From assembly GCA_030704615.1 (NCBI GenBank), contig CM060731.1:5952001-6016000 (forward strand): a stretch of 64,000 nucleotides of DNA, written 5' to 3'. The notes beneath the pieces were generated by a model. It was given only the letters and a program-made list of their open reading frames with translations, made no database searches and had not been told where the DNA came from. Both the position numbers and the translations under genes were made by a program. Below are positions 36,681 through 63,446 of this stretch, piece by piece; within the stretch, counting starts at the first letter, position 1; each line of letters starts with the position of its first letter. The DNA is from Takakia lepidozioides. Its lineage: Eukaryota; Plantae; Bryophyta.

Positions 36681-36964
36681 TGCAATGTCATACTTGAAAC
36701 TCTACTGTTTTTTTGGGAAAAAATGTGGCTTCATATGGATTGCAATCTTAGATCCAGATTGAATGTCGTTGACGACATTCACTTCTTTGTCTAAGTCATT
36801 CTTAAGCGAGTATATGAATTCACCTGGTTAGGATCTAAGGATGCAATTATATTGTCCCTGATTAGAATTGATAATGTCCTTGAATGGCGTTGACGACATT
36901 CACATACGGAGTTGTTGAGAGGTCCTCAGAGTTATTTAAATTTTTGTAATGTCCATAGAGGTTA

Positions 36965-37585: not shown

Positions 37586-37599
37586 GCTGTGTCAAGCGG

Positions 37600-37890
37600 T
37601 GACTGGCTGTGTTTGGCTGTGTCGGGCTGTGACTGGCTGTGTGGCTGTGCCGGGCTGTGACTGGCTGTGTGGGCTGTGTGGGCTGTGACGACTGTGACGG
37701 GCTGTGTGGGGCTGTGTGGGCTGTGACGACTGTGACGGCTGTGTGGGCTGTGTGTGACGACTGTGACGGGCTGTGTTGGCTGTGTCGGCTGTGTCGGCTG
37801 TGTGGGCTGTGACGACTGTGACGGGCTGTGTTGGGTGTGTGGGCTGTGACGGCTGTGTGGGCTGTGACTGCTGTGTCGGCTGTGTGGGCT
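37600..37890. repeat. Degenerate (GGCTGT/GACTGT)n simple repeat
   Basis: Visible low-complexity array. Confidence 0.9.
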
Positions 37891-38413
37891 ATGTAACCCC
37901 CCTCTACAGTGCGCTGCTGTCACCCCTAAGGTTCCTGTTTGTCTCAGTCTGTGCAAAAATTAAGGGTACCCTACAGATCCCGTATAAGTGTCTAAGTCCC
38001 CTACCGTCCTCTAACATTTACCCCTTCCTCCCTCAAAAAGCCGTGTCCTCACGGTTTACTGTTTCTGAGTAGCAACCCTTTGTGAGTGAGCACCCTTGTT
38101 GACGTTGGAGTTTCGTGGCGGGCTGTGTGTACGAGCCCGAGGTCTGTCTCTGGTGATGGAGATGGTTGATCACTACCTGGATAAGTGAGGCCTTCTGGAG
38201 GCTGATATCGAGGTAATCTATCCGGCATAGGAGATCCCCTTTGTTTCTTCTCTTCCATCTGAATTGCATAGTCTTCTCCCATGTCAAAAGAATTTGTGAA
38301 GAAACAGTTGTATCAGAATCCTCATCGCCTCTCAGGTGTTTTAATTTTCGAACTTTTTGTGGGAATCATCTGGGGCATACAATGCTGTCCTACCATGTCT
38401 GGAAGTTTGCATT

Positions 38414-40826
38414 TTACAACCTGGTGTAACCGTTGAACAGCAAAATTTGGTGTAGACACTGAGCTCCTTGTCTGTCAGATGATGTGGGGGGGTACCAATT
38501 ATGGTGTGCAGCGTGCAAGTATTTCCATGCGATATGTCCCTTATAGAAAATGTCATCAAGTCCGAATTTCTGTGTTGACAAATTGTTGCAGGCTGCTTGA
38601 AACCATGAACGAATTTGAGAATCCTTCTGTATCATAACTTTTGGGTCATATAGGTACATATGAGGTGGGCATCGAAGGTAATACCCAATGATCTCCACTG
38701 GAGTAACTTGAAAGCGTGCTTGCATCTTTTGTTGCTCTATGTGGTAACGTATCAGAAAACAAGCAGCGTAGTATAGCCCGCACCCCATGACAATACTTGC
38801 TATTTCCTTGGTCTTGGTATATATAAATGAGTCCATGTACAACCTGGAAAGCAACCAATTCCCTCAACATGGTACCTACTCGTGCCAGTATTGTGCAAAG
38901 TGATGATCTTCAATATGTCGATTGTTTGGAAGAACTTTAGTCCTGGTTGCCACTGGCAGCCAAATACGCAATGATTTGGTAGTAAGTGGCGAATGACTGC
39001 GGAGGACTAAATTCTTTCCAAGCCAAAATCAAATGATGGGAATTTTGGTTGAAGGGCATAATCATAGCCCTACTGTACTCCATGGCAAGCTGGAGTTTTA
39101 GGTGGGTTATTAAAAGATGCATTGACCCATACATCCGGTCTACTGGTACACTGACCTGTTTGGTGGTGGTGGTAATGGTTCCTGTACCATTGGCATCTCC
39201 TGCACCTCCTGTGAAGACTGAAAAGCCAGAGTTCTGGCTTGCAAATAAGAAGCCATTAGCTGTTCCTGAGGGATATAGACTCTTTGGTCGATGTTTGAAG
39301 TGAGGTCTTCCACTTGAGTCTGGAGTCCGTCTACATCCTCTTGTAACTCTGCTATCCTACTATAGACATTGTCTATAGTAGTTGTGGCAATGTTCTGCAC
39401 CTGCAGTCTAAGCTCATTCATCTCGCTTTGGGTGAGCTTCCGTGGGGCTTTGCCTTCTACTGGGCCTTGTGCTAACCAGACCTGCATAAGGCTGTTATCC
39501 ACCAAGCTGCTTGTGGTTCCCCTGAGAGTTTGCTCCTCTCTTAGCTTATACAATTCCAACTGCTGTTGTAAAGCCTTCATGCGCTTCGCCTGTGGCTCAA
39601 ACCAATTGCGCATAGGCAGCAAGTAGATTATTGGCTTCTTTCGAAGCCTTGTTACTGACCGCGATTTCATTTCTATTGGCCACGATGGTTTGTTGCAACT
39701 CCACGATGTATTTCTCATTCTCAGCTTCCATCTGCCTGTATTGCTTGAGAGTATCTTCATTGCGACAGATTGTATTCTTCATATCGACAATGAGCTTCAT
39801 GTGCTCCACATTCTCTTCTTCTGCCTTCGTACATTTTTCCGCTTGACTGTTTATTTCTTTTGTTGATTGGTCAAGCATAGTTGTAAATGTAGCGCATTGT
39901 ATCGCCATCCTGTTATGCACTGTCTGCAACTCCGTATGTAGTGCATTCAGTTTTGCAACTTGCTTTCATGCTGCACCTGCATTTGGTATAGCTGTTGCTT
40001 ATGTGCTTCGTGCAACTGGTCTTGCGCGAGGCCTGCCTCAATCAATTGTTGCTTGGCCAATTGCAAAGCCATTTCTGTATTGGCCAAGTCCTGCTTCATC
40101 TTGAGAGTGACCTCTTCATCGACCTTGTTTGCACACTCAGTGGCAAGTCGAGCCTCAAACTCCTTCCTGAGTTCTTCTTTCAAGGCTGTCAATTGGGTAA
40201 TTGGAACATGGGTTTTGACATAAGTCCCCAACAAATTAAGTGTCTGCCTATGGAACTCATCAGCATTGCCTGTTGAGGGTCATCCTGGTGAGGTTGCTGC
40301 TGTTCCTCCTGATCTTCAACAGTATGATGTCTCACGAACCATTCAGACCATTGTCCCACCGGATTTTCTTCCTGAACTACTTCATTTATGACCGGTGCTA
40401 CAGTGTCATGGCCTTCCGCCTGTGGTACCTCCGACACAGGTGTGTGCATTATATGTACCTCAGGATTTCTCTTGGGCAACTGTTGCACCTCTGGGATTTC
40501 TTGTCTGCTTGACCAGACCAGAATATTCATAGAGAAGGTCCCCTTTCTCTATTTCTGCCACTATCTGTTCTGTAGTTGGAAATCTCCCTTCACTTTCCAA
40601 ATCAATTATTTCGGGTTGAGCTGCATGAATAACTTGTGACCTTGTGACAAATCGTTTCAATGGCTGTGGGTTGTGATGCAGAAGTAAACTTCTTCCTCCC
40701 TCTCTGAAGGTCCTGCTTCCAGTAATAACATTTCTTTTGTGCTGCTGTGCCCCTTCCTGGTCAATGAGCTTGGGAACATTATCATGCGGAATCCGTGAAG
40801 CCAGTGGATCCGTCACTACAGTCTTT
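38414..40826 (-). pseudogene. Fragmented coiled-coil ORF, probably a retroelement accessory gene
   Basis: Consecutive minus-strand ORF pieces rich in E/Q/K/L heptads followed by an aromatic-rich domain. No recognised family. Confidence 0.4.
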
Positions 40827-41326
40827 NNNNNNNNNNNNNNNNNNNNNNNNNNNNNNNNNNNNNNNNNNNNNNNNNNNNNNNNNNNNNNNNNNNNNNNNNN
40901 NNNNNNNNNNNNNNNNNNNNNNNNNNNNNNNNNNNNNNNNNNNNNNNNNNNNNNNNNNNNNNNNNNNNNNNNNNNNNNNNNNNNNNNNNNNNNNNNNNNN
41001 NNNNNNNNNNNNNNNNNNNNNNNNNNNNNNNNNNNNNNNNNNNNNNNNNNNNNNNNNNNNNNNNNNNNNNNNNNNNNNNNNNNNNNNNNNNNNNNNNNNN
41101 NNNNNNNNNNNNNNNNNNNNNNNNNNNNNNNNNNNNNNNNNNNNNNNNNNNNNNNNNNNNNNNNNNNNNNNNNNNNNNNNNNNNNNNNNNNNNNNNNNNN
41201 NNNNNNNNNNNNNNNNNNNNNNNNNNNNNNNNNNNNNNNNNNNNNNNNNNNNNNNNNNNNNNNNNNNNNNNNNNNNNNNNNNNNNNNNNNNNNNNNNNNN
41301 NNNNNNNNNNNNNNNNNNNNNNNNNN
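40827..41326. other. Assembly gap (500 N)
   Basis: Run of N. Confidence 1.
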
Positions 41327-43799
41327 CAATGTTAAGGCATGTAAAACCGCGGAATACTCTATACAGGCCAGTATGCGACGTCCTTTTGCAGTGGTATACT
41401 GGATTTCCCGTTGCACGGTCACTTATTTCCATGAGCGGATCTATAAAACCATGAGCGGACTTGTTACTGACGACATATCTTCGCCGCATTACATGATCTG
41501 GAACGTCCAAAAACGGCAAGGTCAAATAAAAAACTATTATTTTAATACTTGTTTAATCTGCCGCATTTCCAAATTTGGAGGAGTCCGCTCATGAAATCCG
41601 CGTATCTTAGACTTCGGCTCACCGCTCATGCGGCTCATGCGGCTCATGGCTCATGGCTCATGGTTTCTGCTCATGAAATAGTAAACCTCCTTACACGCTC
41701 AAGCTGCGTCCCTGGAGTTCTCACATGGCACTGTCTCAACTCAGCAACGCATGTATGAACATGGTAGAGAGAAATATAAGCCAGAACACACAGCTCCATG
41801 CCATGTGGCCCCCCGTCTGCTCAACTGGTCGAATATGGCTCATCACGGCACTACTACAGACCGACATCTTTGCCCCACTCACGGATCATGCATTTGCTTG
41901 ACGTTCCCCAGCTCGAGGCTTTGCACAAATCACCCACTGTTTGTAGGCACGCCAACGCTGAAGAAGCTTCCATTTGGACTCTACCAAGGCCATACTGCTT
42001 GTCGAAGTTGCCTTATGTAGTAGCTGATTGTCTGCAAAACACAGGATGTCCACAAGTGCGCCAACGGCATCACACTCTCCGAGTGTATGTCAAGCTAACT
42101 ACAAGTCTGATCACGGGCCTGTCCCCCAAGCGTCACGCCCTGATGCTTTCCTCTCTGCACGGTACTTTATTATTGTGCAAATGCTCGAACTGCTCAGCAT
42201 TTTTAACACGGTTCCAGCCTCCGAGCTACCTCTCGCCGTTCTCCAGCTCTCAGCTTACTTATATGTGCAATTTGGACGCTGTTCCCAGCCATGCCCGCCC
42301 TATGCTTCGCAAGCAGTTATTAGAGAAAGACTTCACACGGTTTTCGCTGCAGCCCCCCCTCTCTTCTCATAATGGGGACTGCCTTCAGCATGTGTACTCC
42401 ACGATCACTATGCTCCACAATCCACCTCGAGGTCCAAAGCCTCGGGCAAAACAAAACAAGTCATACCCAAGAAAAGAAGTTTACTGTCAACAACTACGAA
42501 CTGATTTGTATGCACAACTGCAGCTCCTTCTTTGTATATACAGAGCCTACGAGGCTGCCCAAGCCTCCATCTCGCCTCTTATTTGGCATCATGTGTGCCT
42601 CCCGTGCACAACATCGTACCGGACTACAAACGAAACGAGCAACAATGACTTCTATCAAAACCACTCATTACGAGTTGTGCTTTCCCTACTTCAAATATCA
42701 TCGACATAGTGCTAACATAAAAGAAATCTATCTAGCTTAGCACTACCAAAACTAGACAGGTCACCTCTCTCGAGTGATAAGAGAACTAAAATCACAACGT
42801 TGAGACAAGAACATGAAATACAACACCATCACTCGTTAAACTAAGAGTCGAGCCAGGGGCACCCCAAGCTATGGGGACTCCACCCCACAACATCATATTC
42901 TCCCTTCATAAGCACACTCCGATTCTAAGCAGTGAAGGAGCTCGGTTGTGCAGGCTCAACTCGAGAGAGATGAGCCGCACGACTGACACTCTCCTGAAGA
43001 TAAGATGGTTCAGGTGTCAAGCTAAACTTGACACCTGACTTAACACTTGAACTAAATCCAAGTGTTAAATACAAATAACTAGCTTTATTCTAGTTAGTTT
43101 CACACTGTGTTTATTTAACTTGACAAAACATCTCACCCCATGGGACTTCTCGCCCAAGTCAGGGGATATTTTCATATACCTGCAGGATTGGATAGACCAC
43201 TCTCAGCAAAGGAGGGTGCACCTGTCCGCTCTTGAGTACCTTCCTGGTCTCCATGATCAGCCTCGCCGGGACGGGCCTGCGCGGCTTTGGTGCCTGCGAA
43301 TCGTTGATCTGCAGTTTCCGCCAACATGGAACATCCCCAAAAGCCGCACGGCCTTCCTACATCATTGGAGGTGTTGCCAGTGGGCCTACGAGGATTGCAT
43401 CGGGTGTACGTACATGCCAGAGAGGATTCCATCGCAAACAGTGTATGGGGACATTCTCATAAGCTACGAGGATGAGTCTTATGGACATAGAGTCTCCACA
43501 GCAAAGATCTCGATTTACGATGGTGCATATATCGGAGGAGATGACACCGTTGTCCACTACACCAAAGGTGAACGGGCTACATCCATTGTCTTCACCTACC
43601 GACACCCTGTCAGTCATGAACTTGTTGAGAGGCCAATTGAGGTTCCAGCTTCTTGGTGAGAACAATGCAACACGGGAGCAAATTTCCAAACGGAGCATGG
43701 ATTGCATGCATACTTTTGGCTTCCCTTGGTTTGTGAGGGCATGCATACTTGTCACAGTTCATTATTAATAAAAATGTCTCCTTTGAACCAAAGTTCCAC

Positions 43800-46875: not shown

Positions 46876-49126
46876 TTGTGATGTACAATCATGAACTCCT
46901 CCGTCAAGCATTTTATGGCATCATTTATGAAATGTGATCCCTGATCACTGACGAATTCCTGTGGGCAACCAAATCGTGTGATGATGTTTTCATATAAGAA
47001 TTTGGCTGTTGATCTGGCAGTGTTGTCTCTTAGTGCCTTGGCATCTACCCATTTGGTAGTGTAGTCAGTGGTTGTGAGGATGTATTGGTTTTGTGTCTAC
47101 CTTGCTGGACGTTTAATGGGTCCCACGAAGTCTAGCCCCCAGCGCTGAAATGGTTCTGTTGGTAGTATTGGGTGCAGAGTCCCCTTCCCTGTTCGTTCTA
47201 CTGGTCCCATCCTCTGGCAGACATCACACTGTTAACAGTGTTCATAGGTATCTCCAAATACAGTAGCCCACCAGTAGCCTGCTAGTAATATTTTCTTTGC
47301 TGTCAGGTCCGAACTGAAGTGTCCTCCTACAATTCCTTCGTGTAGTTCTTGCATTACTGTTTTGGCTTGGTCTTTGTTTACACATCTTCTCATTATGGAG
47401 TCAATTCCTCTTTTGTACAGAATCCCTTTGATTAATGTGTATGGCTTGCTTTTCATTGAAAGCTTCATCCTGTCATCTTTGGTGTAATCTTCAGGAAATT
47501 TCCCTGTGCTCAGATAGTATTTGATTGGCCATTGCCAATCATCTTGATCTTAATCCTGAATATCTTCTGATTCTTCTTTGGTGACTGTATAAGCTCCAAT
47601 ACTGATATTGGCCAATTCTTGATTGTTTGTTTCTTTGTTTTCCTTGTCATCTTCTTCTTTTGGATCTGGCTCTTCTTCAATAATAAGTCCTTCATCAAGA
47701 GGTTCATCTTCATCGGATGAATCCTCTTCATCCGTGTCGTCCATGAGTTTGAGAGCATCTGGAAGGTCATAGTCTCCTTGAAACATTCCCAGAGCATTTA
47801 TAGGATCTGTCTCTTCATCTGGTGCTTCTGGTTGAACAGCAAATAGAAATGCATCGGGAAGTTGATCCTCTACCCCCGTGGCTGGTTCTCCTGTAGTAAT
47901 CCTTGACAGATGATCTGCTGTAACATGTAATCTCCCTGGTTTATAAACAAATTCAAAGTCATACTCATGAAGAAGTAATAACCATCGAGCATCCCTGCCA
48001 CTAGCTAGTGGTCGATTTGCTAAATGAACTAGAGCCTGATGATCCACAATAAACTTAAATCGATTGCCAAGTAAATAATGCCGAAATTTTTGAACATCAT
48101 AAATCATTGCCAATGCTTCCCTTTCTGTGGTGCTATAATTCTTTTCGGCTGCTGTCAGTAACCTTCTTGCATAATAGATTGGTGAATCTATTGTGCCTGT
48201 CACATTCTGAGCTAGAACCGCTCCCAAAGCAATGCCTGATGCATCACTGTGTACATGAAATGGTAAATCCCATCTTGGATTTATCAGAATTGGCGTTGCT
48301 ATGAGTGCTCTTTTTAGTGAATCACATGATTCCTGGCAAGCTGGAGACCATCTGTATTCGGCATCTTGCTTCAGTAGTCTATAGACCGGTGCCGCTCTGT
48401 GAGCATATTTGTCCATGTACCTTCTGTAATAGCTCGTTTGTCCCAGAAATCTCTTGAGTTTCTTGGGATTTTCTGGTGGTGGTATTTTCTGGATAACCTC
48501 CACTTTCTTTGGATCTACCAGAATTCCCTGTTGGCACACAATATGTCCCAATAATAATCCTGAATTCACACAGAATGTACATTTTTCCGGGTTGAGACTT
48601 ATTCCATTGTTTCTGCAGGCTTGTAGGCAAAGTTTTAACTGTGCCAAATGTTTGGATTTCTATCCGAAGACACTGAAATCATCCAAAAATACCTGCATAA
48701 AATCATTGAGATAGTTCTTGAATACTTTAGATACTGCTCGTTGAAATGTGGCTGGTGCATTACAAAGTCCAAATGGCATGACTTTGTAAGCATATGCTCC
48801 CCGTTCAGTGATGAATGTGGTCTTTTCTCGGTCTTTTTCTGCCATCTGTACCTGGTTGTACCCACTAAACCCATCCATGAATGAATACATCTCATGTCCA
48901 GCCACTGTGTCCAACACTATTTCAGTGAAAGGTAGTGGAAAAGGGTCTTTCTTGGTTCCTGCGTTTAACTTGCGATAGTCCACACACACTCGTAGTTTTC
49001 CATCTTTCTTGGGTACTATCACAATGGGTGATAACCATTGTGGTGTCTCTACTGGGTATATGAATCCTGCATCCAGTAACTTCTTGATTTCTTCCCAAAC
49101 TTTAGCTGCGTAGTTGGGGTTCATTC
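46876..49126 (-). pseudogene. Host Gypsy RT-RNase H-integrase N-terminus
   Basis: RVCVDYRKLN, MPFGLCNAP, FLDD, HSDAS, YSTTEREAL, HEGIVGGH, WGLDFVGP. Frameshifts. Confidence 0.9.
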
Positions 49127-49481
49127 TGTCAAGTTAAATAAGCACAGTGTGAAAACAGCTAGAATAAAACTAGTTATTTGTATTTAACACTTGGATTTAG
49201 GTCAAGTGTTAAATCAGGTGTCAAGTTTAGTTTTGACACCTGGTCTGTCTTATCTTCACGAGAGCGGCAGTCGCGCAGCTCATCTCTCTCGAGTTGAGCC
49301 TGCGCGACCGAGCTCCTGCATTCTTCAGATCTGAGTGTATGATGGGAGTGTAGGTTGTTGTGGGGTGGAGTCCCCATAGCTTGGGGTGCCCCTGGCTCGA
49401 CTATTATCTTAAAGAGTGATCTTGAGGGATTGCATATTTCTTGTGTTGAGAGTGCGTGTCCTTTTTCAAGTTTGTTTATCA
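49127..49481 (+). repeat. Terminal repeat A1 (355 bp)
   Basis: Appears identical to 60660-61014. Confidence 0.95.
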
Positions 49482-49497
49482 CTCGAGAGAGATGAGC
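49481..49497 (+). promoter_or_regulatory. Putative self-priming primer-binding site
   Basis: ACTCGAGAGAGATGAGC is the exact reverse complement of 49278-49294. No TGG-starting tRNA PBS present. Confidence 0.7.
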
Positions 49498-51706
49498 CTA
49501 TCTAGTTTTCTAGTGCTAAGCTAGATACAATGTTCTTTTAACACTATTATAATATATGACTTGGGGCAGGAGCCCATCTAGTCCTGCTGTTGCCATGGGT
49601 TTGCGCTTGTTGTTTACACATGGGCGTTAGTGGTGATCAGGGTGTAGTCATCCCTGTTTGTGGTGGCGGGTGCGCGCAGGGGGCCTTGGCGACTCTGCTG
49701 CCTGAGCGCTGGGGCAGGCTGAGCACCCAGTAGGCCAGTCGTGCCCAACTTGTGTGGTCATCTGTGTTGCAGCTCAAGAAGGGCCATTGGCTGGTAGCCC
49801 ATTTTGGCTTGCAAGCATATTGCTGGATTCACCGTGCTCTGTAGAGACTCGCTGCCAGCGTACAGGGAAAGGTAGTGGAGGAGGCAGGTAGGTCGTGGGC
49901 CTTCTCCACTTTGTCCTGAATGGGAATCGCCAAGGCTATCTCCATAACGAAGGCGCGGTTGTCTGTTAAGAGCGCAATGCCATCAGTCGCAGGGTGGAGG
50001 AGCTCGATTTTGAGAAGTCCAGACCATAGTTTGCTACCGTGCTTAGTAAAGGCAGTGATCGGTGAACTGGAGGTGTCTATGTGTTGTGAGGGGCCTGGCG
50101 TAGCATACTTTTGGGATCAGAGTGGGAGCTGCCGGCATCACTGTTGAGCGCACTCGGTGCTCGTTTGATACCTGGGTTGTTAGCCAAGAGCACCAGGTGG
50201 CGTAGGCGTTGCAGAGCGGAGGATAATCTGGTGGTCTGACGGGTTGGTTGTCACAGGAGTTTGTGTTGCTGGAGCGCCTGGGGCATGTGTGTCATTGATC
50301 GTTGGCAGATTCTGCGCAGAGCGAGTTTGGTAGGCGCGCTCCGTTGCAAAGAACTGTTCGTCAGAGAGATGCATGTCTCTGATCTCGGCGTACCATCTGT
50401 GTAGCCTTCCATTGCCACTTCGTTGGTTGAGTGTTGCTTTCTAGTGGAATGGGGTTTTGTGGCTCGAGATGGCTGGAGTGCAGAAGGCATGAGGGCAGTT
50501 GGACACCTGCCGCGCACTGTTGAAGAGGAGCTCGTGGTGGCAGCGCTTACAGGCCACCTTGATGTGGGGCATTGCAACTTCCTGCCAGGCAGTACACGGG
50601 TAATGCAGCTGAACTCCACATTGAGCCAGCACAACGAGCTGCTGCACTTACGCCAGCCCCTTTGCAGCAGCAAGCCTCCAGGCAATCTATTACTGGTCAT
50701 CTCTCTTCACCCGATTCGTTGGAGGGTAGTCTAATGTCAGGCAGCTGTGAGAAAGGCCAAGCAAGAGTTGTCCAGGGAAGGATAGACAAGGTCACCAGAT
50801 CTTAGGCCATTTGCTGGAAGGGAAGGGCGCTTTCTGACAGTGTCAACCTCCCAGGCTGGCGATCCTCAGGTTTTGGAGGATTGAACCTCAAGGTTGTGTT
50901 TGTTGCAGAGAGTATGAGAGTGGGAGACTGTGGACTCACCAGGTGACACTTGGTGTATGAGTGGGATATGAGCTGAAGGGGCCCAGCTCACTACACGACC
51001 TGCTTGGTCTATGTTTACAATTCAGGACTTGAGGGCAGCCTGTGCCAACTCCATGGAAAGGCTTACACAATCAGTGATAGCAGATCTGTTGTTGTCACCT
51101 TGAAAAATCAGCACGCATGAAGGGCTGAAAGCGTTCTTGATCAAGCTAGTCAGTTCTGGTGCTTTCCGGGGTTGCATTGTAAGTGCTCTTGCTTTTGTTG
51201 GGAATATTGGTGCAAAGGATTAAGGCTCGGCATAGCTACGGATCTCGACTGGAGGAGAGCAGGTCACTGGTAACCAAGAGCTGTGGGGGGTGCATTTGTA
51301 AACACAACTGAAATCCTAGAAATTACAGGGCACGTGGCTAGGGAACCTAGGATGCCATATAGAACTTAGGGAACCGGGAACCAGTTACCAGACATTTTGG
51401 GTGTAACTTTAAATTGTTAAACTTTAAAACTTTAAAAAAAAAAAAAAACCCTTTTTAATCTAATTTGAATGATTTGGAGCCAAATTCATCATATCTTTGT
51501 CAAATGGACTCTGGTTGACCCAGTTTTTGGGGGGATAGCTGCAGAAAGGGGAAATCTACCTATCTAAACCTGGTTTCTGCTTTGGGGACTCTGCTAAAAA
51601 TCTATGGAATTTTTAGAGTGTGAGAGTGCCATGAAGGATCCACAATCCTGTCTCTAGAACCTGTGCTGGTCTATATGAGAGACAAATTGGTGGATGTACT
51701 CCATGC

Positions 51707-52456
51707 ATGGCTGGGGGAAATGAGGACGTAATTGAAGGGCAGGTCTCTTCTCTTAGTCTGTGCACACAAGGGGACACGATTTATGTTTCCCAAGGAACTC
51801 AGACTGATTTGAGTGGAGAACAGTTGGACGAGTTGATTGCATACTGGGAGTCAGGCATTAGCAGTAGACAACAGACTACTGTAGTTGGCATTGAGGGCCT
51901 CAATATCGCCTTGGACAGTCAGAACTCTGTTGGAGCCAGCAGTTCTGCAGCTGTAGGTGAAATACCAAAGTGGGTGAAAGCTAGGCTTGGAACACAGCCA
52001 AAGACAGCCCCGGGGACCAAGGTGTTCAGCCACAGGGCCGTGGTGTATTGGAGCAGAGGAGCAGGAGCTGCACAAGTTTGTGCAATTAGACAGTGTTGCA
52101 GTCGGACACGCTCTGCACAAGGCAACCATGAGCGGGGGTTCATTAGCGAGGACAAGTTTGTTCTGTTTGAAGGCGATGCAGTCATTCGCAATGAAGATAC
52201 CCGCAATCGTCTCAAAGCTTTCGAGTTGAGAGACTATCAGACCCTACCTTTGTTTTCTTTAGTGTTCAGTGAGCGGGAGATAGCAGAGTGTTGCTTTGTC
52301 TCTACCTGGCAGAAAGAGGAGGAGGGTTGGTTAGAGCGAGCTACTGTAGCTTGGGACAAGGTTAGTGGCAGGTTTCTGGACATAGATATACCTCCTACAC
52401 CTTACCATCAAGCAGAGCGAGGCACTTTGAGAGAAGTCTGGAAGTTGATAGCATAG
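51707..52456 (+). CDS. Unknown 249-aa ORF upstream of gag
   Basis: ATG-initiated uninterrupted ORF with globular-looking composition. No recognised motif. Confidence 0.45.
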   Translation: MAGGNEDVIEGQVSSLSLCTQGDTIYVSQGTQTDLSGEQLDELIAYWESGISSRQQTTVVGIEGLNIALDSQNSVGASSSAAVGEIPKWVKARLGTQPKTAPGTKVFSHRAVVYWSRGAGAAQVCAIRQCCSRTRSAQGNHERGFISEDKFVLFEGDAVIRNEDTRNRLKAFELRDYQTLPLFSLVFSEREIAECCFVSTWQKEEEGWLERATVAWDKVSGRFLDIDIPPTPYHQAERGTLREVWKLIA

Positions 52457-52968
52457 ATCAGGATTAGATCTTGCTTGGGCGGGCTTCTATTCTTCCCCTC
52501 CATCTCTGTACTATTTTCATTACCTTGTACTTGTAGTTGCCAAAGCCTCTCTTGGTGGAGGCCAGTCAGTCCGGGGTTTTGGGCTGGGATATTCTGCAGG
52601 ATCAGCATTGCAGCTGGATTTTGGTGTGGGGGTGTTGATGTTTTGATTTCTTGTGTTTGGATCCCCCCCAACACCTGCATGCTTGACTGTGCGCCATGTT
52701 GGTTTTGTGTGGGCGCTTGCTTTCATAGGGATTAGGCCGGATTTGATCACCGGTCAATCCTAGAGTATGCTGTCGGTGGTGAGGCTGGAGTGATGACCAG
52801 CAAGACCACCAGTGTTTCTTCTATGGTGAGGCTGGGTTGATGACCAGCCAACCATAGGAGTTCTTGCGGTGGATGCAGGTGCAGGTGCCCTGAGCCACTG
52901 GGATATGACCCTTAGACTGCAACAGGTGCCCACCCGTGTCACTATTAGATTAGTACTAGAGCCGTATA

Positions 52969-55900
52969 GTGTCACTGGAGGAGGTGCACATTGTGAGTGT
53001 CATTACGGAGTTACCCAAGGGTTTTGAGGGGAGTACGGCTACAGGCAGTAACAGTGAGAGTGGGTTCACAAGACGAGGTATTCGGTTCAGACCACCTTCA
53101 CCGCCACCCTCAATTACTGTAGAGTCAGACACAGGCTCGGAGGCTTCATCAACAGGTGTGCACTTTCATTCGCCATTGTTGTGGGACGACATGGAGGAGA
53201 TGTATGGAGCTACCAAGGGGCCTCGTAGGTACTCTGGAGCTGTGGGCACAATCGAGTTGGATGACTTTATCCAGGAGTTCGACAGCTGGTGTGATTTGCA
53301 GCAGATGCGCAATCCACATCTATTCACCCCATTCATGGCGTGGAAGGGACTGTTCCAGCATTTGGAAGGCCCGCCTATGGACGATTACCACGAGTTCAGG
53401 CGAGGACATGAAGCAGAGATTGAGGAGTGGAGGATGTATTGGTCACCTGACTACATCTCCATTACTCGAGGCATGACGCGACCAGTAGCTGCATCAGTAC
53501 CAATAGCTCCCACTGCCAGCACTAGTAGTGGAGCAGGTAGTGCTGGTACTTCTGCAGGTGGTACCAGTTCAGAAGGTGCTACTACTCCTCCTGCCACAGC
53601 TACAACACATGTGCCTAGATTCAACCCGGTGGTGGAGTTCTTCCAGGAGTTGCGGAGGAACTACCAAGGTGTACGGACAGAGAAGCTGCGAAGTTTGCAA
53701 GACTTCCAGCGCAAACCCAGTGAGAGCCTGCGAGAGGCGTACACTCGTATGAGGCGCTTGATAAGTGTGACCCAAGGGGTTACTGAAGCTCAGGCAATCC
53801 AGTTTTGGTATGGAATTCTGGACAAGGAGCTCAAGAGAAGGGTGCGAGATGCAACCCTGTTACAAGCAGCCCAACCCACATTAGCAGATGTGTTTCTGCT
53901 GGCTGAGCGGATTGAGCTCAACATGGTGGAGGAACGAGTTGTTACAATTGGATTTGGCAAGGACATGCCTGTACGGGGCACAGCTGTCAGCCCACAAGCA
54001 CAAGGGACTGCCCAACAGCGTGGTCAGGGGGGCAAGGTTGCCCAGCCCAAGTTCCATGGAGCTTACAGGGGGCCTCAGGTGCAAAGGCCCGTGGCATCTT
54101 TTGCAGGCCAACAGCAACCAGGGGTGATATGTTGGACATGTGGAGGACCCCATGTCAAGAGAGATTGCCCAGAGAGTGGCAGAAGGCCGGCACAAGCACA
54201 GCCTGCACAGTTGCAGTGTGGGCATTGTGGCAAATATGGGCATGGAGATGCCCAGTGTTATGACTTACATCCTGAGTTGCGCCCAGGCCAGTTCCAAGGG
54301 AACAATGGTGGCCGGGGGCGAGGTGGACCAGCCCAGAGAGGACGAGGTGGTCGGGCACGAGGTGCAGGCCAAGGGCAAGCTCAACATGGCCAAGGACGCG
54401 GAGGTCAGGGCGTTGATCAAGGCATGGCCAACCGGCTTCAGCAGCTAGAGCAGAGGCTCGCTGCCATGGCTATAGCTCAGGCGGTACCGGCTCCCAGGCG
54501 GGATGGTCCACCTCCTGCTCCTGAGGGAGGAGATATGGGAGGCATGGGATTTATGTGCGGAGCAGCACTACCACTAGAGCAGGTGGAGTCTGCTGCAGCC
54601 GTGACTCGAGGAGCAGCACGAGTTCCTGAGCCACGAGGTGCAGAGGTGGAATTGGATCCACAGCGTGGGGAGGCAAGCCGTCAGGCAAGGCTTCCTCAGT
54701 CATTCACATTGGCGGAGACTGTGTCGACGCCATCCATGGCACCTAGTTCTCGCCCGACTGTTACCGAGGCGGAGGTTACTATGCCATTGGGGAGAGCTAC
54801 ACGTGCAGCATTGACTCCTGCTGCCAAGGCTAGTGCGGCCGGTGTGTTGTTGGGGGCAGCCACCTCTGTGTGTCAAGCCCCATTGTTCTCGGCAACCATG
54901 ATTGCGACGCCGGGAGTGAGACCAGCTGCAGTGTTCAGACTAGCAGCAACACTCTGCGAGAGTGGAGAGGTCACTTCATCTTCTGCGGAGTTAGTGGAAG
55001 GTGTAGTGGCAGAAAGATCCTCGGATTTGAGGGTCAAGACTGCCACGGCAGCGCCCTGGCAAGCGGCAGCTGCCAGATTGACGGAGCTGCCAGCTAGGCC
55101 AGCCTTTGAGCGCGCCACGGTGACACCTGGAGTTGTCTTGTTAGACAACCAGGGAGGCATTTTCACTTTGAGTGGACCGACAGGCAAGAAGTACCGGCCA
55201 CTGCGGGTCTTGTTGGACTCAGGAGCTCAGCCACTGATGTTGGGCAGAGCTGCTATTGCAGGTTTGGGCCTCATGGAGGCGGATATGGAGCCTTGTCCTT
55301 TCCAGATACAGACATCTCTGGGAGGATCAGAGCAGGCTCGGGGCATGACACGGCATCAGTTGGCTATTAGACTGCAGCCGGATCATCCTGTAGATGGCTC
55401 AGTGATGCGAGCCAAGGCCATTGTGACAGACGCGGTCTCTTACGATGTCCTCGTTGGTGGGGCAGTGTTATACCCCATGGGCTTCACCCTGGATTTCTGG
55501 GAGGAGTCAGCATCCTACAGGCCTGGATGGCAGTCAGGGGATGGTCGCCGTGCACAGCTCCCTGTGACATTCATTGGGGGTATTGCAGCTGCCCAGCGGG
55601 GCCAGATGCCAACACTAGCCGCCTTCACAGCTGCCGTTAGTTGGCCTGGAGAGTTGCTGGAAGGCAATGTCCATGCAGAGGATGTGCCACCTCTAGCAGA
55701 GCAGGATGACATGCATGGTACGGCGGAGTTGCCTGCCATGGTTGCTCACACCCCGTTGTGGGGTACGAGCAAAGATTTGCAGCAAGCTGCTGATGGACGG
55801 GTGCAACAAGCTTGGGAAGAAGCTTTTGTACCGTCAGGAGAGGAGGAGAGTTCGGTGATTGCACCAGGGCCACCTCAGTTGTCGCCATTGGACACCACAC

Positions 55901-56900
55901 CTCTTGTATGGCAGCGGCCGGATGAAGGCATTTGCCTTCTGGACTTGTTTGGCGGGATCAGCACCGGATTGGCTGCTGTGCTACAGGCAGGTGTGCGGGT
56001 AAGGCGTTACCTGTATGTGGAGAGGGATGAGACTGCACGACGCGTCTCACTGCGCCATGTGGCTCAGTTGGTACAGCAGTACCCTGACTTGTTGCCTGTG
56101 TCTTCAGTTCGTGGATACCAACAAGCCTTACCAGCAGACATTTCCTTGTTGGGGGCGCAAGATTTGGAGCAGGTTGGCTCTATTGATCTGATAGTGGCAG
56201 GTTGGCCCTGCCAAGGGCATTCATCAGCCGGGCATGGCAATGGATTACGAGACTCGAGGACGGGTCTGTTTTGGGAGATGGTGCGGATTTTGCGCTGCTT
56301 GCAGCTTCATCAAGCTGTATCTCCAGCATACATCTTGGAGAATGTACCACTGATGGATGATTCTCGGGCCAGGGTGATGGCCAGTGTGCATCAAGTCCGG
56401 TCGTGGCTTGGGTCAGCAGTGTTGCTGGATGCAGCTGCAGTGGGGTCACGGGCTCATCGTCCACGACTATGGTGGACTAACTTGATGCCACCCGCACTGC
56501 TCAAGCGTGCATTTGATGGGGTGCAGCGGCCAGCACACCTCACCGTGGATGGCATTTTGGACACAGGAAGGCAGTCTCAACGTGTGAGACACGATGACCG
56601 TTCGCCTTTGGCAGTGGTCAACAGGGTGGGTCAACCACGAGTAGCATTACCTACACTGCTCAGCTTCCCAGGATCCCATGCTTTTCGGGATGGTGGACCT
56701 GGCCTCCTGTGGGATGCTCAGTTGCAGCAGTTAGTGGAAGCCTAATGCCGATGAGCGAGAGCGGGCTATGGGGTTTTCCACTGGGACCACGGCGGTGCCT
56801 TCTCTTTCTGAGGCATCACGTCGTCAAGTGTTGGGGCAAGCAATGGATCTCAATTGCTTGACCTGGATTGTCAGCTTGGCTATGGCTGAGCAACGTAGAG
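52969..56900 (+). CDS. Gag (two CCHC knuckles) - aspartic protease - C5 cytosine DNA methyltransferase (DNMT3-like); frameshift at ~56740
   Basis: CWTCGGPHVKRDC, CGHCGKYGHGDAQC; LLDSGA; LLDLFGGISTG (I), YVERD (II), GWPCQG (IV), LENV (VI), AHRPRLWWTN (VIII), ERERAMGF...RRQVLGQAM (IX/X, shifted frame). Confidence 0.92.
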
Positions 56901-57337
56901 TGCGGAGTGCACTTCCCTTGACGGTCTCTCTGCCTACCGAGACGGTACAGGCAGCGAGTGGGGGCGAGCCGGTGAGGACCACGAGGTGTAGACATCCATG
57001 GCACATGTGGGAGGTGCTCGAGGTTCAGAGGGAGTTGGCAGCGAAGGCAGCTGTGATGGATGAGGTTGGGGATTCTTCTCGGGATGAGGAGGTTCTCAAT
57101 GATGAGATGATGGGGCAGGATGAGGCCTTGTCATTGACTGAGCAGGAAGGGGGTACTGCTCAAGAGGTTGCAGCATAGCAACCACGGGACGGGTCCTCTA
57201 CCTCTAAGCCCACTGGACTTAAGGTTGCAGTTACGGAGGACAATTGGGAGCCTGGCATTGGACCCATTGTCACCGGAGGAGAGAGACGACGTATACGGCG
57301 GTTCCTGAGGGCTTACAGGAATTGCTTTGCCTTCAGT

Positions 57338-60313
57338 TTGAAGGACTTGGGAGCACTGAAGGGTCAAGAGATCCGTATTGAGTTGGCCACTGATACGCCA
57401 ATCTTTCGGAGACCCTATAGATACAGTGACATAGAGAGGTCTTTGATTCAGATGAGGACTCAAGATCTCTGGGAGGCAGGTTTGGTGGAGCTCTCTGGTG
57501 GAGAGTATGCTTCAGCCACAGTGATGCCAGCTAAGAAGGATGTCTATGGCAATTGGACGGAGAGACGTATGTGCGGTGATTACCGGCCTGTAAATCGTCA
57601 GACCAAGTCCGATAGGTATGCCATGCCAACACCAGAGGAGATCTTTGATGCCATTGGGCATTCCAAGGTCTTTAGCACGTTGGATTTACGATCCGGATAT
57701 CACCAGTTGCCGATCAAGGAGGCGGATAAGCAAAAGACGGCATTCTGGGGGATCAATGAGCACGGGAAGGATTGCCTATACCAGTGGCGGTTCTTACCAT
57801 TTGGGCTTAAAAACGCTCCCGCTGAGTTTCAAAGAGTCATGGACAGGATTCTAGCAGGGGTGGAGTTTGCTCGGTGCTACATAGATGACATCATCATCTT
57901 TAGTGCTACGGTGGAGGAGCATGAGAGACACCTTCAGGGGGTATTTGAGCGCTTGAGGACGCACGGATTGAAGTTACACCCGGGCAAGTGCAAGTTTTTC
58001 CACAACCAGATTGAGTATCTGGGTCACATGATATATCCTGGAGGATTGGGGGTACAGCAAACTAAGGTAGAGTCCATTGCACAGGTTCCACGCCCCACGG
58101 ATGTGAGCCGAGTTCGAGCTTTCATGGGGTTAGCAAACTATTACAGACGGTTTGTTAAGGGATTTAGTGCCATTGCAAAGGCTCTAACCAAGCTGACCAA
58201 GGTGGACCAGGAGTGGCAGTGGGAAGATGAGCAAGAACAAGCTTTTCAAGAGCTCAAGGCGAGGTTGACCTCGGCGCCCATCTTGAGACGACCTATCAGG
58301 GGGCGTCCTTTTCAGCTGCATACAGATTGGAGCATGCTGGGGCTTGGAGCGGTGCTCACACAGGTGGATGATGAGGGAAGAGAGTTCGTAGTGGCTTATG
58401 CTAGCCGCTCGAACAATGCTGCAGAGTCTAAGTATAGCTCATATGAGGGAGAATGCTTAGCTGCAGTGTGGGCCGTGGCACACTTCAGGTGCTATTTATA
58501 CGGCAATCTCTTCACCCTTGTCACGGATCACCAACCACTCAAGTGGTTGATGGAGTCAGACAAGCTTACGGGGAAGCTTGCACGGTGGGCACTCATCCTT
58601 CAAGAGTATGACTTTCAGGTGGTGCATCGACCGGGTTTGGTCAATCGAAATGCAGATGGGTTGAGTCGCAATCCATGCACGAGCCAGCAGGATGACACTG
58701 GAGCTCGGTGGCATGGTGAGACGGACGAGGAGATGGTGCCCGGATGGCATGCATCTGCATTTCTGTGTATCTTGGCAGCGGAAGGCCAGGTTGGACCTAC
58801 AACAGGGATGACTGCAGATCAAGTGTCTGAGGACCCTGAGGCCAGCAATGAGCAGGGTGGCGCCAAAGATATACATGAGGATTCAGTTGTGTTGGACTAC
58901 CTCCGCAGTGGAGACACGGCAGCCACTGTGACTGCCAAGGAGAGGGATCGGATCCTACAACGAGCCAAGAGGTTCAGGTGGGAGGGGACACACCTACTCC
59001 GAGTGTGGGAGGATGGTCGAGTGAGGATTGTGCCTCACCCAACACAGCGGGCACGGTTAGTGCGGCATGCCCACGAGGAGTTGGGGCATTTTGGGGTGCG
59101 ACGCACCCATAGCCTACTGCAGGGGCAGTATTGGTGGCGTGGTATGCACACAGAGGTGCAACAATTTGTGGCTAGGTGCATGGTGTGTGACAGGGTGCGT
59201 GCTTCATTCAACGCCCCTACTCCACAATTGCACCCTCTTCCGATCATGGGATTGGGCTACAGGTGGAGTCTTGACTTCGCAGGGCCGTTGCCACTGACCA
59301 TGCGCCACAACAAGTATGTGTTGGTGATGGTGGAGCACTTCTCCAAGTGGATTGAATTGGTTCCATTGCCTGATAAGGCTAGTGAGGGAGCTGCGTATGC
59401 ATTCTTGGATTGTGTGCTTAGCCGATTCGGTGCTCCAGCTGAGGTACTCACGGACCAAGGGAGAGAGTTCTTGGGGGAGTTTCAGGCTTTGTGTGACAAG
59501 GCCTTGATAGACCACCGCACCACTTCTCGGGATCATCCTGAGGCCGATGGCTTGGCAGAGAGAGTTGTTCAGACAGTAAAGAGGGGTTTGCGCAAGTATG
59601 GCTTGCAGAAGGGACACCTAGGAGATTGGGACCTTCAGTTACCCTGGCTAGCCATGGGCTACAGGTTCAGCAAGCAAGCATCACTTGCCTCCTTCTCACC
59701 ATACTTTCTTCTCTTTGGCCGAGAGCCGGATTTGCCTACATCCATTCGCAGAGAAGCTGCTACAGTTCTTAACCTTGACGATCCGGACGTGTGGGCACGT
59801 GCATGTGAGCAGCGTGCAGAGTTGTTCAAGAGAGTCATGCCCATGGCTTTCGAGAACCTTGCCATTGCACAACACCGTGATATGTTGAGGTATGCTACCA
59901 TACGTGGTGGGGGCTATCGTCCTGGGGTTCGGAGATTCAACCCTGGTGACTATGTCTATCTGCAGCAGACTGCTCCTACGACCCTGGATGTGACTGCAGG
60001 ACGTGTTATTTTGAGGGTTCGAGAGGTCTTGCCCTCAGGCGTCTTGGTCTTGGAGGGTCGGGATGGCATAACTTGGAAGGACCATGTGCGTAATTGTGCG
60101 CCATGTCACCTTCCGAATGTCGATGGCAGGATTGACCCAAACCTGGCAGTGGTATCTGCAGGTTTGAGGTGCATGTTGTGTGGGTCTGCTAAAGGGGCAG
60201 CCACCATGCTGGTATGTGATCGGTGCTCTAGAGGTTGGCATATGGGATGCTTGACTCCACCTCTTGAGATGGTTCCGGATGGGGATTGGTTATGTCCACA
60301 TTGCATTGGATAG
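57338..60313 (+). CDS. RT - RNase H - integrase - PHD finger
   Basis: LPFGLKNAP, YIDD; HTDWS, SSYEGE; HEELGH..CMVC, SLDF, TDQG, GLAER; C4HC3 CMLC...CDRC...H..C...WLCPHC. Confidence 0.95.
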   Translation: MKDLGALKGQEIRIELATDTPIFRRPYRYSDIERSLIQMRTQDLWEAGLVELSGGEYASATVMPAKKDVYGNWTERRMCGDYRPVNRQTKSDRYAMPTPEEIFDAIGHSKVFSTLDLRSGYHQLPIKEADKQKTAFWGINEHGKDCLYQWRFLPFGLKNAPAEFQRVMDRILAGVEFARCYIDDIIIFSATVEEHERHLQGVFERLRTHGLKLHPGKCKFFHNQIEYLGHMIYPGGLGVQQTKVESIAQVPRPTDVSRVRAFMGLANYYRRFVKGFSAIAKALTKLTKVDQEWQWEDEQEQAFQELKARLTSAPILRRPIRGRPFQLHTDWSMLGLGAVLTQVDDEGREFVVAYASRSNNAAESKYSSYEGECLAAVWAVAHFRCYLYGNLFTLVTDHQPLKWLMESDKLTGKLARWALILQEYDFQVVHRPGLVNRNADGLSRNPCTSQQDDTGARWHGETDEEMVPGWHASAFLCILAAEGQVGPTTGMTADQVSEDPEASNEQGGAKDIHEDSVVLDYLRSGDTAATVTAKERDRILQRAKRFRWEGTHLLRVWEDGRVRIVPHPTQRARLVRHAHEELGHFGVRRTHSLLQGQYWWRGMHTEVQQFVARCMVCDRVRASFNAPTPQLHPLPIMGLGYRWSLDFAGPLPLTMRHNKYVLVMVEHFSKWIELVPLPDKASEGAAYAFLDCVLSRFGAPAEVLTDQGREFLGEFQALCDKALIDHRTTSRDHPEADGLAERVVQTVKRGLRKYGLQKGHLGDWDLQLPWLAMGYRFSKQASLASFSPYFLLFGREPDLPTSIRREAATVLNLDDPDVWARACEQRAELFKRVMPMAFENLAIAQHRDMLRYATIRGGGYRPGVRRFNPGDYVYLQQTAPTTLDVTAGRVILRVREVLPSGVLVLEGRDGITWKDHVRNCAPCHLPNVDGRIDPNLAVVSAGLRCMLCGSAKGAATMLVCDRCSRGWHMGCLTPPLEMVPDGDWLCPHCIG

Positions 60314-60560
60314 TGGGAGTGGATACAACCATGGAGGCTAACAAGAAACGCAAGGCCCAGCTACTAGGAGACCTTGAACACACGAGATCTTGGCTCAAGT
60401 TCATAGATTGCAAGACGGCGACTAACGATGGGGCTACTCTTGTACCCGGCCTCTTGGTTGATAGAGTTTGAGCACGATAAAGACAGTGATAGAGGACTTA
60501 GTACGGCTGTGGCTATTACATCTTGTAGCTATCTGGAGGTAGAGGGACCTATCCACCAGC

Positions 60561-60572
60561 TAGGGGGGCGAT
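60561..60572 (+). promoter_or_regulatory. Polypurine tract
   Basis: AGGGGGG immediately before B1 (TGTG...). Conserved at 29796-29802 on the minus strand. Confidence 0.7.
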
Positions 60573-61100
60573 TGTGCTAGACTACTTTATTGTGCATATA
60601 TGTGTGGTGTGGTCTGGACAGCGATGTAGTTGTGTAGCGATATGTATGCGCACGACAGCTGTCAAGTTAAATAAGCACAGTGTGAAAACAGCTAGAATAA
60701 AACTAGTTATTTGTATTTAACACTTGGATTTAGGTCAAGTGTTAAATCAGGTGTCAAGTTTAGTTTTGACACCTGGTCTGTCTTATCTTCACGAGAGCGG
60801 CAGTCGCGCAGCTCATCTCTCTCGAGTTGAGCCTGCGCGACCGAGCTCCTGCATTCTTCAGATCTGAGTGTATGATGGGAGTGTAGGTTGTTGTGGGGTG
60901 GAGTCCCCATAGCTTGGGGTGCCCCTGGCTCGACTATTATCTTAAAGAGTGATCTTGAGGGATTGCATATTTCTTGTGTTGAGAGTGCGTGTCCTTTTTC
61001 AAGTTTGTTTATCATTGTGCTAGACTACTTTATTGTGCATATATGTGTGGTGTGGTCTGGACAGCGATGTAGTTGTGTAGCGATATGTATGCGCACGACA
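60573..61100 (+). repeat. 3' terminal block B1(85)-GC-A2(355)-T-B2(85)
   Basis: B1 60573-60657 = B2 61016-61100; A2 60660-61014 = A1. Confidence 0.95.
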
Positions 61101-62879
61101 ATTCTGTAATGGTTCTGACGAATTGGTTTTGTGTCAACTTCCAATTCAATTCGGTGTTGACAGATATTAGAAGGTATACCCTTCAAATCTTTGTAGTTCC
61201 AGGCAAATACATCCTTGTATTCAGTGAATAATGCAGTAGTTTCTTGTAGAAATGTTTCTTCAAGACCTGCACTTACTCGTATTATTTGTGGTTCTTCCAC
61301 TGTTCCCAGATTCACTTGAATCAATTGTGTTTCTTCCGTTACTATCCATCCTGCAATTTCTTGTCCGATGGTTGCAATTGTGGCAGGTACTTCACTGATT
61401 TGAATGTCTTCTTCCCTTTCTTGATAGAAACGGGTAGGGTGTTGAGGTGTGTCCATCGCTTCTTCCTCTGAATCTTCCGTTCTCGAAGTATTGTTCTCCT
61501 TGAGTGTTCACCATGTGACATCCTACTGTTGTGGTATGCTTGACCACCAGTTGCTCAATAGGTTCCAATTGTGGATGTGCTGCGTATACTGTGGTTTCTT
61601 CTTCATCCGACAGTCCACTGGACCAATCATACTCTTTCACTATGCAAGGTCGTTTCTCTCGTGGAATAGTACCTCGTTGCTTGGTAGTGATGGTGACTTG
61701 TTCTGCTCCCTTTTCGATTGTGAGAGTCTGACTTCCCCAATCGTGGTGTGATTGGGCTTGTGTTAACCATGGTCGGCCAAGTAGTAGCGAATATCCTTCT
61801 GCCACATCCTCCATTCTGAGAATGGTTACTGATACTTCGTATAGCAGTCTTGCTACTTCCATTGCAAGTCGTCTGATAATCCCCAATGGCTGCACTTTTC
61901 GTTGATCAGCCATTCGTACTGTGAATGGAGCGGGTTCCATGTGCCCCAATCCTAGTGACTTCTTCATCTTTTCTGTCATGACATTCACTCCGGATCCTCC
62001 ATCGATGAGTACATCCGTTACCATCGTCCGTCTAATACGTACTTGTATTACGGGTATTGCTAGCTTCCTGATCAGAGTCTTCATTCTCTCCAGGTAGTCG
62101 ACTACCAATTCTTTCTTTTTCTGTCTCAGGTTCTGTAATCCTGTGAAGATTTCAGACGCGGATTTGTTGGATCTATATCTTTCTTGAAACGCAGCTCTCA
62201 TATCCGCCCAATTCGCAAAGTGATTGGCTGGGAAGGTTGCCAACCATTCAATGCCTTTCCGGGCCATTGAACAAAGAAATAGTCGGATCTGCTCTTGGTC
62301 TGTTGCTTCATTGTAAATGGTGCACATGTTTTCAAAAAGATTAAGATGGATATCTGGATCAAATTTCCCATCATATAAAGGAAATGGTGGTCTGGTTTTG
62401 CTTGCTGCTAAAGCCATCGGTGCAGCTGGTGCTGCTGGTGCAACTAGTTGCCCAAACTGGGATGGTCCCGCTGCTGCTGGCTGGAGTGGTGTTGGTGTTT
62501 GTCTTCCAAACAGTGATTCAAAGCTAGGAGGTCCTTGTCCCAATGATAATCGTTTTCCAGCTGTCCCTACTAAGCTTAATGAATCTTTAAAAGCTTTGAG
62601 TGCAGTTCTAGTTATCTTTTCTGGAGAAGTGCTTTCACTTCTTTCACCTTCTTCACTCAGAATGTTCTCAAATCTTTCTTCCAATATTTCAGCAAAACCT
62701 CGATTTGGACTTGTTACTGTAGAAGGTCCTTCAGATCTTTCTTGTGGTAACCATTCATCAAGTACATTACTGGCAACTTCTTCTGGTGTAGTGTTCCCAC
62801 TTCCCACCAATCCGATTTCCTGATCTTCTGGTTTATCACTGTCAATTTGTCTTGATGTCTCACCTTGAATAATATTCAA
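61101..62879 (-). pseudogene. Host Gypsy gag-protease and pre-RT region
   Basis: YDGKFDPDIHL...W..MRAAF..RY, LRQ...E.V.DY (gag); LIDGGSGVN, LLGRPWL (protease); YKDVFAW, HRIEL. Confidence 0.9.
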
Positions 62880-63446
62880 ATTCTGTAATTATGGGAACTT
62901 TTCTCTTAACCGAGCCTCCCTTTCTGCAACATATTTCTCTATTCGTTCAGCTCTGTCTTGTTTAGTTTTTTCTTTAATTTCCTCATTCATTCCCACATCA
63001 TATGTAGAATTCCTTTTCGGCACCCTTTAAACAGTCTTGGTATGTCAGTAAAGAAAATTTATAGTGGTCTCTACCCTTTCTTCAAGATTTATCCCATCTT
63101 GCAAGAATCTGTATTACGACTTAATTTTCTTTTTTACTGATTGATCACCAAACTTTTTAATGAGCACAATAATACCATCTGTCTTTTCCAGTGTATCTGA
63201 CTTGCAATAAGTCTTTGGGTATCCAGTACTCCACCTCTTATATGATCATGTGACAATATTCATAATTTGAACATCCTTCTCTGAAAATATAACTAGTGTA
63301 GCAAACTTTTCTGATTGGGATTAGAGTAATCAATAAAGCTAGACGAGACAACCACTCTTCACTTTTGGAGCATGTTGGGGCTTGGAGCGGTGCTCACACA
63401 GGTGGATGATGAGGGCTTTGGAGCACCTACATTCCCAAGGTGCTCG

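Follow-up and report, generated by a model that had tools for sequence, protein, structure and literature searches.

How does a long terminal repeat (LTR) retrotransposon insert itself when the ends found in the chromosome lie inside the repeat unit that its own reverse transcription signals define? The question is raised by a Gypsy element at 49127..61100 of a 64,000-nucleotide stretch of the bryophyte Takakia lepidozioides (assembly GCA_030704615.1, contig CM060731.1, forward-strand positions 5,952,001 to 6,016,000), which is the whole of the DNA analysed here and is called the window. With its repeat divided into two parts, A and B, the element reads A1, primer-binding site (PBS), internal region, polypurine tract (PPT), B2, gc, A2, t, B3, and not LTR, internal region, LTR. 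It is Gypsy-like in its workings up to integration, yet a variant at its ends, and its sequence and that of its relatives suggest that an end-joined intermediate is probably cut by the element's DDE integrase at the palindrome that precedes the PBS.

Layout, ends and target site

The preliminary description of this DNA, made from the letters alone, had given the permuted layout together with a 4-bp target site duplication (TSD), ATTC, that restores the reading frame of the host, and all coordinates proved correct when rechecked on the window. The features concerned are the following.

49123..49126 (+): left copy of the TSD, ATTC; host frame restored
49127..49481 (+): A1, left terminal repeat, starting TGTC (the right arm of the palindrome) and ending TATCA; 100% identical to A2
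49278..49294 (+): 17-nt exact complement of the PBS; from this complementarity, likely self-primer and RNA 5' end
49481..49497 (+): PBS of self-priming type, an exact 17-nt complement of 49278-49294
60562..60571 (+): PPT, its position kept in relatives
60573..60657 (+): B2, 85-nt repeat behind the PPT, preceded by T60572 and ending GACA; 100% identical to B3
60654..60663 (no strand): palindrome GACA-GC-TGTC, conserved in relatives, its central GC (60658-60659) lost from both integrated ends
60660..61014 (+): A2, identical to A1
61010..61019 (+): A-B join TATCA-T-TGTG, the presumed join of two complementary DNA (cDNA) ends
61016..61100 (+): B3, right terminal repeat, ending GACA; identical to B2
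61101..61104 (+): right copy of the TSD, ATTC
47550..62888 (-): interrupted host Ty3/Gypsy element, unrelated, with gag at 61392-62888 and reverse transcriptase (RT)/RNase H at 47550-49133

Removal of the insert and one ATTC leaves the pol frame of the host Gypsy open over 289 codons with 0 stops (13 and 15 in the other frames), and this restoration fixes the ends of the element independently. Both ends lie inside the unit that the PPT and PBS define, and two whole LTRs bounded by these signals are not what is found there. B2 and A2 are separated by the GC within the palindrome GACAGCTGTC, a 10-mer with two occurrences in the window, one per element copy, and A2 and B3 are separated by a single T. 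The complementarity between the PBS and the A repeat extends over 12-17 nt, with differing sequences, in four of the 12 left repeats tested in relatives (L006, L010, L014, L076), besides which there are shorter or decayed matches; that it is kept while its sequence changes makes it likely that the PBS is self-primed from the element's own A repeat. No tRNA genes were found in the window.

Ends in sequencing-run contigs and in relatives

That copies end at TGTC and GACA as a rule of the family, as had been supposed from this one locus, is borne out by the contigs of sequencing runs and by relatives alike, with no conventional 3' end among those counted. In run X2 (X1, X2 and X4 being a single sample, which may be the source of the window) 39 contigs part from the element behind 60657 and a further 10 behind 60658, and their flanks do not resemble one another (agreement 0.36 for the former, 0.43 for the latter); a 39/10 split is about what flanks starting with G by chance would give if the central GC is not kept. 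Eleven contigs of the same run enter B from an A-type end, while run X4 holds 33 contigs that exit at 60657 and, in diverged subfamilies, joints of the A end to the B start. The ends listed for the runs include no count of conventional right ends behind 61014; X5 and X10 gave one contig each on the junction region, neither of which spans the palindrome, and no reading was taken from them.

The relatives are 80 metagenome loci. In 46 of them the 3' end is recognised by a probe for one of three families; the other 34 have too little downstream DNA or no family-probe match. Also outside the 3'-end count are L030, L032 and L077 (A cut short or contig ends), L042, L043 and L045 (B truncated), L055 (internal deletion) and L072 (contig ends), and loci were merged by shared flanks to give distinct ends. 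The 3' end reads PPT-B-gc-A-B-flank in 18 loci (12 distinct) and PPT-B-flank in 20 (18 distinct), the commoner class, and a whole B-gc-A followed by flank occurs at none of the 3' ends counted. Intact left ends start with TGTC and have no B upstream in 8/8 distinct cases in relatives and in both copies in the window. Seven relatives have both ends: the layout is A-internal-B-A-B in L014 and L076 and A-internal-B in L010, L016, L024, L074 and L078, with an exact 4-bp TSD in L014, L016, L024 and L078, one mismatch in L010 and L076, and no TSD in L074. The two layouts are best read as products of the opening of two-repeat and one-repeat circles at the palindrome. Copies of this kind are mis-delimited by LTR finders, in their ends, TSDs and ages, and A-internal-B copies, having no terminal repeat, are missed by them, yet these supply the commoner 3' end among relatives (18 vs 12).

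The core CA-GC-TG is kept while A and B vary in sequence and length (B 85-177 nt), with C-to-T decay in old copies; the start of B behind the PPT is not uniformly TG. Three related families, from the DNA of other organisms and with integrases 51-81% identical, have both this junction and these ends, and such recurrence is not a matter of chance. An artefact, either recombination between nested copies or misassembly, might be suspected from the second copy in the window, which has a gap of Ns and an imperfect TSD, and from the ability of metagenome contigs to collapse repeats, but it is hardly credible: one run has 49 contigs with these ends, three families of relatives have them at 30 distinct loci, two algal elements already in print share them, and four of the seven complete relatives have exact TSDs.

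Two loci carry other arrangements. At L048:1629-1929, counted as B-only, part of A stands in inverted orientation behind the end of B, and at L055:3321-3602 a partial A and a B are joined straight to the region of the PHD finger; insertion into another copy, autointegration and deletion are possible origins of these products. A viral contig set yielded 2 weak, uninformative loci.

Origin of the terminal B and of the A-B join

B2 and B3 are more alike within a copy than between copies (distances of 0.012 vs 0.071 in the window, 0.077 vs 0.091 in F1 and 0.080 vs 0.122 in F3), no alignment column sets every B2 apart from every B3, and the private alleles common to both B repeats of one copy number 5, 8 and 30 in the three sets. 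Homogenisation of this kind indicates that B3 is re-made from a B2 template in each cycle. The A-B joins of F3 are mutually different in 5/5 cases, with extra bases resembling remnants of the PBS or PPT, with lost bases and, in one case, with A cut to ~78 nt, and at the join of L001 ~22 nt of A are lost and 3 nt of PPT are kept. A PPT remnant has the left end of the cDNA as its only source, so the join links two cDNA ends, and from these comparisons it appears to be re-made and not inherited. The earlier suggestion that A2-t-B represents the end ligation of linear cDNA thus agrees with how the join behaves, namely as one made anew in each cycle. At most joins a single A serves both as the A of CA and as the final A of the PPT. 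Four F1 copies have a G-to-A change where B3 begins; the idea that this base is non-templated was not retained, its CAG context being one in which methylation decay may be at work.

The inheritance of the join is what a route like that of PAT and Ngaro would entail, in which the RNA would extend over the entire unit, A2-t-B3 included, and integration would be the work of a tyrosine recombinase, encoded by the element or borrowed. The split direct repeats of PAT, Ngaro and TOC1, arranged A-internal-B-A-B, occur here as well, and this is the layout given for tyrosine recombinase elements in the legend to Fig. 1e of PMC5890265. The present element differs from these in that it has a DDE integrase, a PBS, a PPT and 4-bp TSDs, while a recombinase was not found. 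A profile scan of 28 of its 62 frames of at least 70 codons (3 long frames and 25 shorter ones, with all frames of at least 130 codons included) gave no tyrosine recombinase family at E 0.1, in agreement with the preliminary description, which had seen none. With the DDE triad intact, TG...CA ends flanked by 4-bp TSDs, B3 tracking B2 within each copy and joins differing between copies, a recombinase-driven route of this kind is very improbable.

A proposed route of integration and its difficulty

The route that the integrated copies suggest would begin with an RNA running from ~49278 in A1 to within A2 and primed by itself at the PBS, from which ordinary LTR reverse transcription would produce B-gc-A-internal-B-gc-A. 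Joining of the A end to the B start would then give a 2-LTR circle, closed or nicked, whose existence is presumed from the join. Integrase would nick the palindrome preceding the PBS on each strand behind CA, leaving two CA-3'OH ends with 5'-GC overhangs, and insertion with a 4-bp stagger would result in A-internal-B-gc-A-B. A one-repeat circle opened by the same cut would yield A-internal-B, a copy unable to finish reverse transcription again. The choice of palindrome might be explained, at a guess, if integrase remains attached to the plus-strand strong-stop DNA; that DNA would form the top strand of its site in both kinds of circle. The original idea of a circle cut at the internal palindrome survives in part: the ends, the loss of GC and the behaviour of the joins speak for it, but a plain symmetric circle also predicts A-B-A-internal-B, which is not seen, and the A-internal-B class had not been foreseen.

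A number of observations weigh against this route, every step of which is read from integrated copies and not from circles, cDNA ends or cleavage products. In a closed 2-LTR circle the palindrome is present twice in identical form, and equal use of the two predicts that ~12 of the 18 B-only ends derive from A-B-A-internal-B copies; this mirror layout occurs in 0 of five B-only copies with a visible left end (P ~0.0007 under the symmetric-circle model), and the left end is A next to the PBS in 10/10 cases, the window included. The A-internal-B layout can arise without a one-repeat circle, from a half-site taken from each palindrome of linear cDNA or from recombination between B2 and B3. Joins are precise in both window copies and in four of five F1 copies (one G-to-A change allowed), and precise joins suit an enzyme-made join as well as host repair. 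For the organism of the window itself the run listings gave no left-end count (none before 60660 listed). Among 17 further loci the PPT is followed by the palindrome, 52-185 nt on, in seven, two are ambiguous and eight have no such arrangement, including L019 (73% integrase identity, with 1571 nt available downstream), and a terminal B follows in 0 of the seven within their contigs. In one of these seven both arms of the palindrome are changed, to GGCA-GC-TGCC. L013, L015, L019, L020 and L023 (72-75% integrase identity) have a different sequence behind the PHD finger, with no PPT-B-palindrome in the 159-1571 nt available.

With the mirror product missing, the circle model needs an added asymmetry, and two rivals remain. 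The first is a jump by the RT, in which the plus strand at the A end switches to the other end of the cDNA through 1-nt homology, the shared A, and recopies B, after which integrase trims a linear or nicked molecule at its outer palindromes without any covalent circle. A jump by one strand is inherently asymmetric and would explain the missing mirror layout, and it accords with the A shared by CA and PPT at most joins and with the precision of the joins in the window and in four of the five F1 copies. The large deletions and the PPT- or PBS-like remnants of L001, L065, L076, L079 and L080 resemble instead the repair of ragged ends, although a jump from ragged ends could also yield them, and such a jump is a rather unlikely origin of the layout. 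The second is repair after insertion, in which integrase cuts the left palindrome of linear cDNA, keeps hold of the two half-sites and inserts the long piece together with a loose B, and the host then joins A to B. The final layout, the 4-bp TSD, the homogenised B and the variable joins would all be the same, and the nearness of the left palindrome to the end of the DNA (85-177 nt) could explain why it is chosen. Each insertion would involve a chromosome break, and B is just 6-8 nt in several of the Chlamydomonas entries described below, too short for a free integrase-bound end. An intasome needs ~16-20 bp of integrase-bound DNA end, and with so short a B a separate end would hardly be workable unless already joined. 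Repair after insertion is unlikely to be how these copies were made, and cleavage of an end-joined intermediate at the palindrome before the PBS is the course that they probably took.

Relation to known systems

LTR circles are generally regarded as dead ends, and the cleavage of circle junctions by retroviruses as a back-up. DDE transposases of the IS3/IS911 type open a circle at abutted ends with loss of a short spacer; these are DNA transposons, whose transposase forms the junction out of the donor site, with no templating by reverse transcription. Foamy-virus integrase cuts a palindromic circle junction after CA on both strands (PMC1180852), 2-LTR circles of HIV-1 that build up in number can undergo cleavage and integration (PMC4372172), and a Drosophila element is described as yielding one-repeat circles as its principal circular form (bioRxiv 2022.09.25.509424). 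The likeness to retroviral cleavage, as these accounts present it, lies in nicks on both strands after the CA of a palindrome, with 2-nt 5' overhangs as in 3' processing. In the retroviruses, however, join and palindrome are one and the same, the product is a normal provirus and the route a back-up, whereas in the present element the palindrome is a templated part of the repeat, apart from a join that may be ragged, and a permuted product results. The chromoviruses Tf1, sushi and Tcn1 likewise have a PBS complementary to their own repeat and no tRNA primer, but as characterised in PMC6317226 they have ordinary LTR ends, and the present element has a terminal PHD finger and no chromodomain that could be found.

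The preliminary description knew of no account of such elements, and in this it was mistaken as to layout: the permuted arrangement is already noted in two figure legends, of 2018 and 2023, while in the text available from these sources the mechanism is not found in print. The legend to Fig. 4c of de Mendoza et al. (2018; PMC5890265) gives KnitGypsy-Dnmt3 of Klebsormidium nitens a DIRS-type repeat structure with domains typical of Gypsy. A Gypsy with a Dnmt3-like methyltransferase in its polyprotein and a DIRS-like arrangement of repeats is present here too, the comparison being one of descriptions. The passages of that account on the element give no palindrome, target duplication, A-internal-B class or mechanism, and its main text has 0 occurrences of 'target site' and of 'PHD'.

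In Craig et al. (2023; PMC9940879) a legend describes the left LTR of Gypsy-7a_cRei as missing the final 8 bp present in its right LTR, and the preprint of this paper has nothing further on the asymmetry; the element is active in laboratory strains, with 86 new insertions reported (PMC9940879). In the accompanying repeat library, with entries judged by eye and ends assigned by file order, 15 of 22 internal entries of C. reinhardtii abut the LTR with CA-GC followed by TG (2a, 2b, 3, 5a in reverse, 6, 7a-c, 8a-b, 9a-b, 10a-b and 11, with B ~6-48 nt and 6-8 nt in several) and seven end in a plain PPT. These are PHD-bearing Gypsy families, in which PPT-B-CA-GC stands next to an LTR that starts with TG and ends in B (PMC9940879). 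They differ in a B of 6-48 nt against 85 here, several entries seem to be tRNA-primed, and in the library they are filed as ordinary pairs of LTR and internal region without a mechanism; a left LTR without B is stated for 7a only among the C. reinhardtii entries. A literature search found no paper proposing Gypsy integration through an internal palindrome, within a coverage that left aside the REM1 paper (Perez-Alegre 2005), the Craig 2021 thesis and Repbase reports, which may describe these ends.

A broader proposal is that circles are the obligatory integration substrate of a Gypsy clade reaching from chlorophyte algae to bryophytes, including most C. reinhardtii Gypsy families and one now transposing in laboratory strains. 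The two half-sites would come pre-joined in the templated CA-GC-TG, both 2-LTR circles (giving live copies) and 1-LTR circles (giving dead copies) would be opened, and accurate cDNA ends would no longer be needed. For and against this proposal the balance is even. If insertion through an internal palindrome is the normal route, the question of circles as precursors could be put to a direct test in Chlamydomonas, where an active element is to hand, and an integrase able to open a defined palindrome of 6-10 bp in closed DNA would hold interest as an enzyme for DNA insertion.

Coding content

The following frames lie in the internal region.

51635..52456 (+): 273-codon open frame, no Pfam family
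52960..56745 (+): Gag, aspartic protease (weak Pfam matches) and Dnmt3-like C5 cytosine methyltransferase; the frame breaks at its end
56735..57178 (+): 147-codon frame between the two long frames, by its position likely the rest of the methyltransferase; no informative Pfam match
57179..60313 (+): RT, RNase H, DDE integrase and PHD finger

The breaks in frame lie near 56745 and 57178. The best solved relative of the pol frame is Ty3 Gag-Pol (E 1e-94), and the order of protease, RT, RNase H and integrase is accompanied by a Ty3-like RT. The integrase has an HHCC zinc finger and the residues D699, D759 and E794 (frame numbering), with 34 residues from the second D to E, and its named relatives come from Riccia, Marchantia and Haematococcus, identity to the Haematococcus proteins being 47-49%. 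A Pfam scan of the frames of the element gave no match to a chromodomain. The nearest solved structures to the methyltransferase are DNMT3A chains (E 1e-8); a Dnmt3-like domain was matched in 31 of 82 loci and is thus widespread beyond the Klebsormidium element described in 2018. The 273-codon frame had no tblastn match in the 82 related loci, and the ~2.1 kb from the PBS to the first long frame (49498-51634) has no recognised coding content.

A second copy and other features of the window

The window holds a second copy with the same ends.

29337..43125 (-): second copy, with A1 at 43125-42775, B2 at 29790-29706, the palindrome at 29700-29709, A2 at 29703-29423 (with a 70-nt deletion) and B3 at 29421-29337

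Its layout is that of the first, its TSD is imperfect (GTTT/GCTT) and a gap of 500 Ns lies at 40827-41326. A tblastn search of its interior with the proteins of the first copy gave no match, and no empty-site homologue of its flanks was found within the window. The imperfect TSD, the gap and the missing protein match make it a weaker witness. Only the repeats and ~90 nt ahead of the PPT are common to the two copies; the 13.8-kb interior of the second has frames of 482 and 553 codons without a Pfam family (30173-31621 and 31819-33480) and a 9-nt tandem array at 37638-37889. Likely it is a non-autonomous partner, or else the gap lies between what are in fact two elements.

Adjoining the right end of the second copy, at 27889-29153, is an array of a ~96-nt unit with a palindromic core, and related motifs occur at 1562-8572. 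A non-LTR element with endonuclease and RT in two frames occupies 14866-18911 (+), and an isolated fragment of 51 nt at 63365-63415 matches the RNase H region of the first copy (58327-58377) at 98%.

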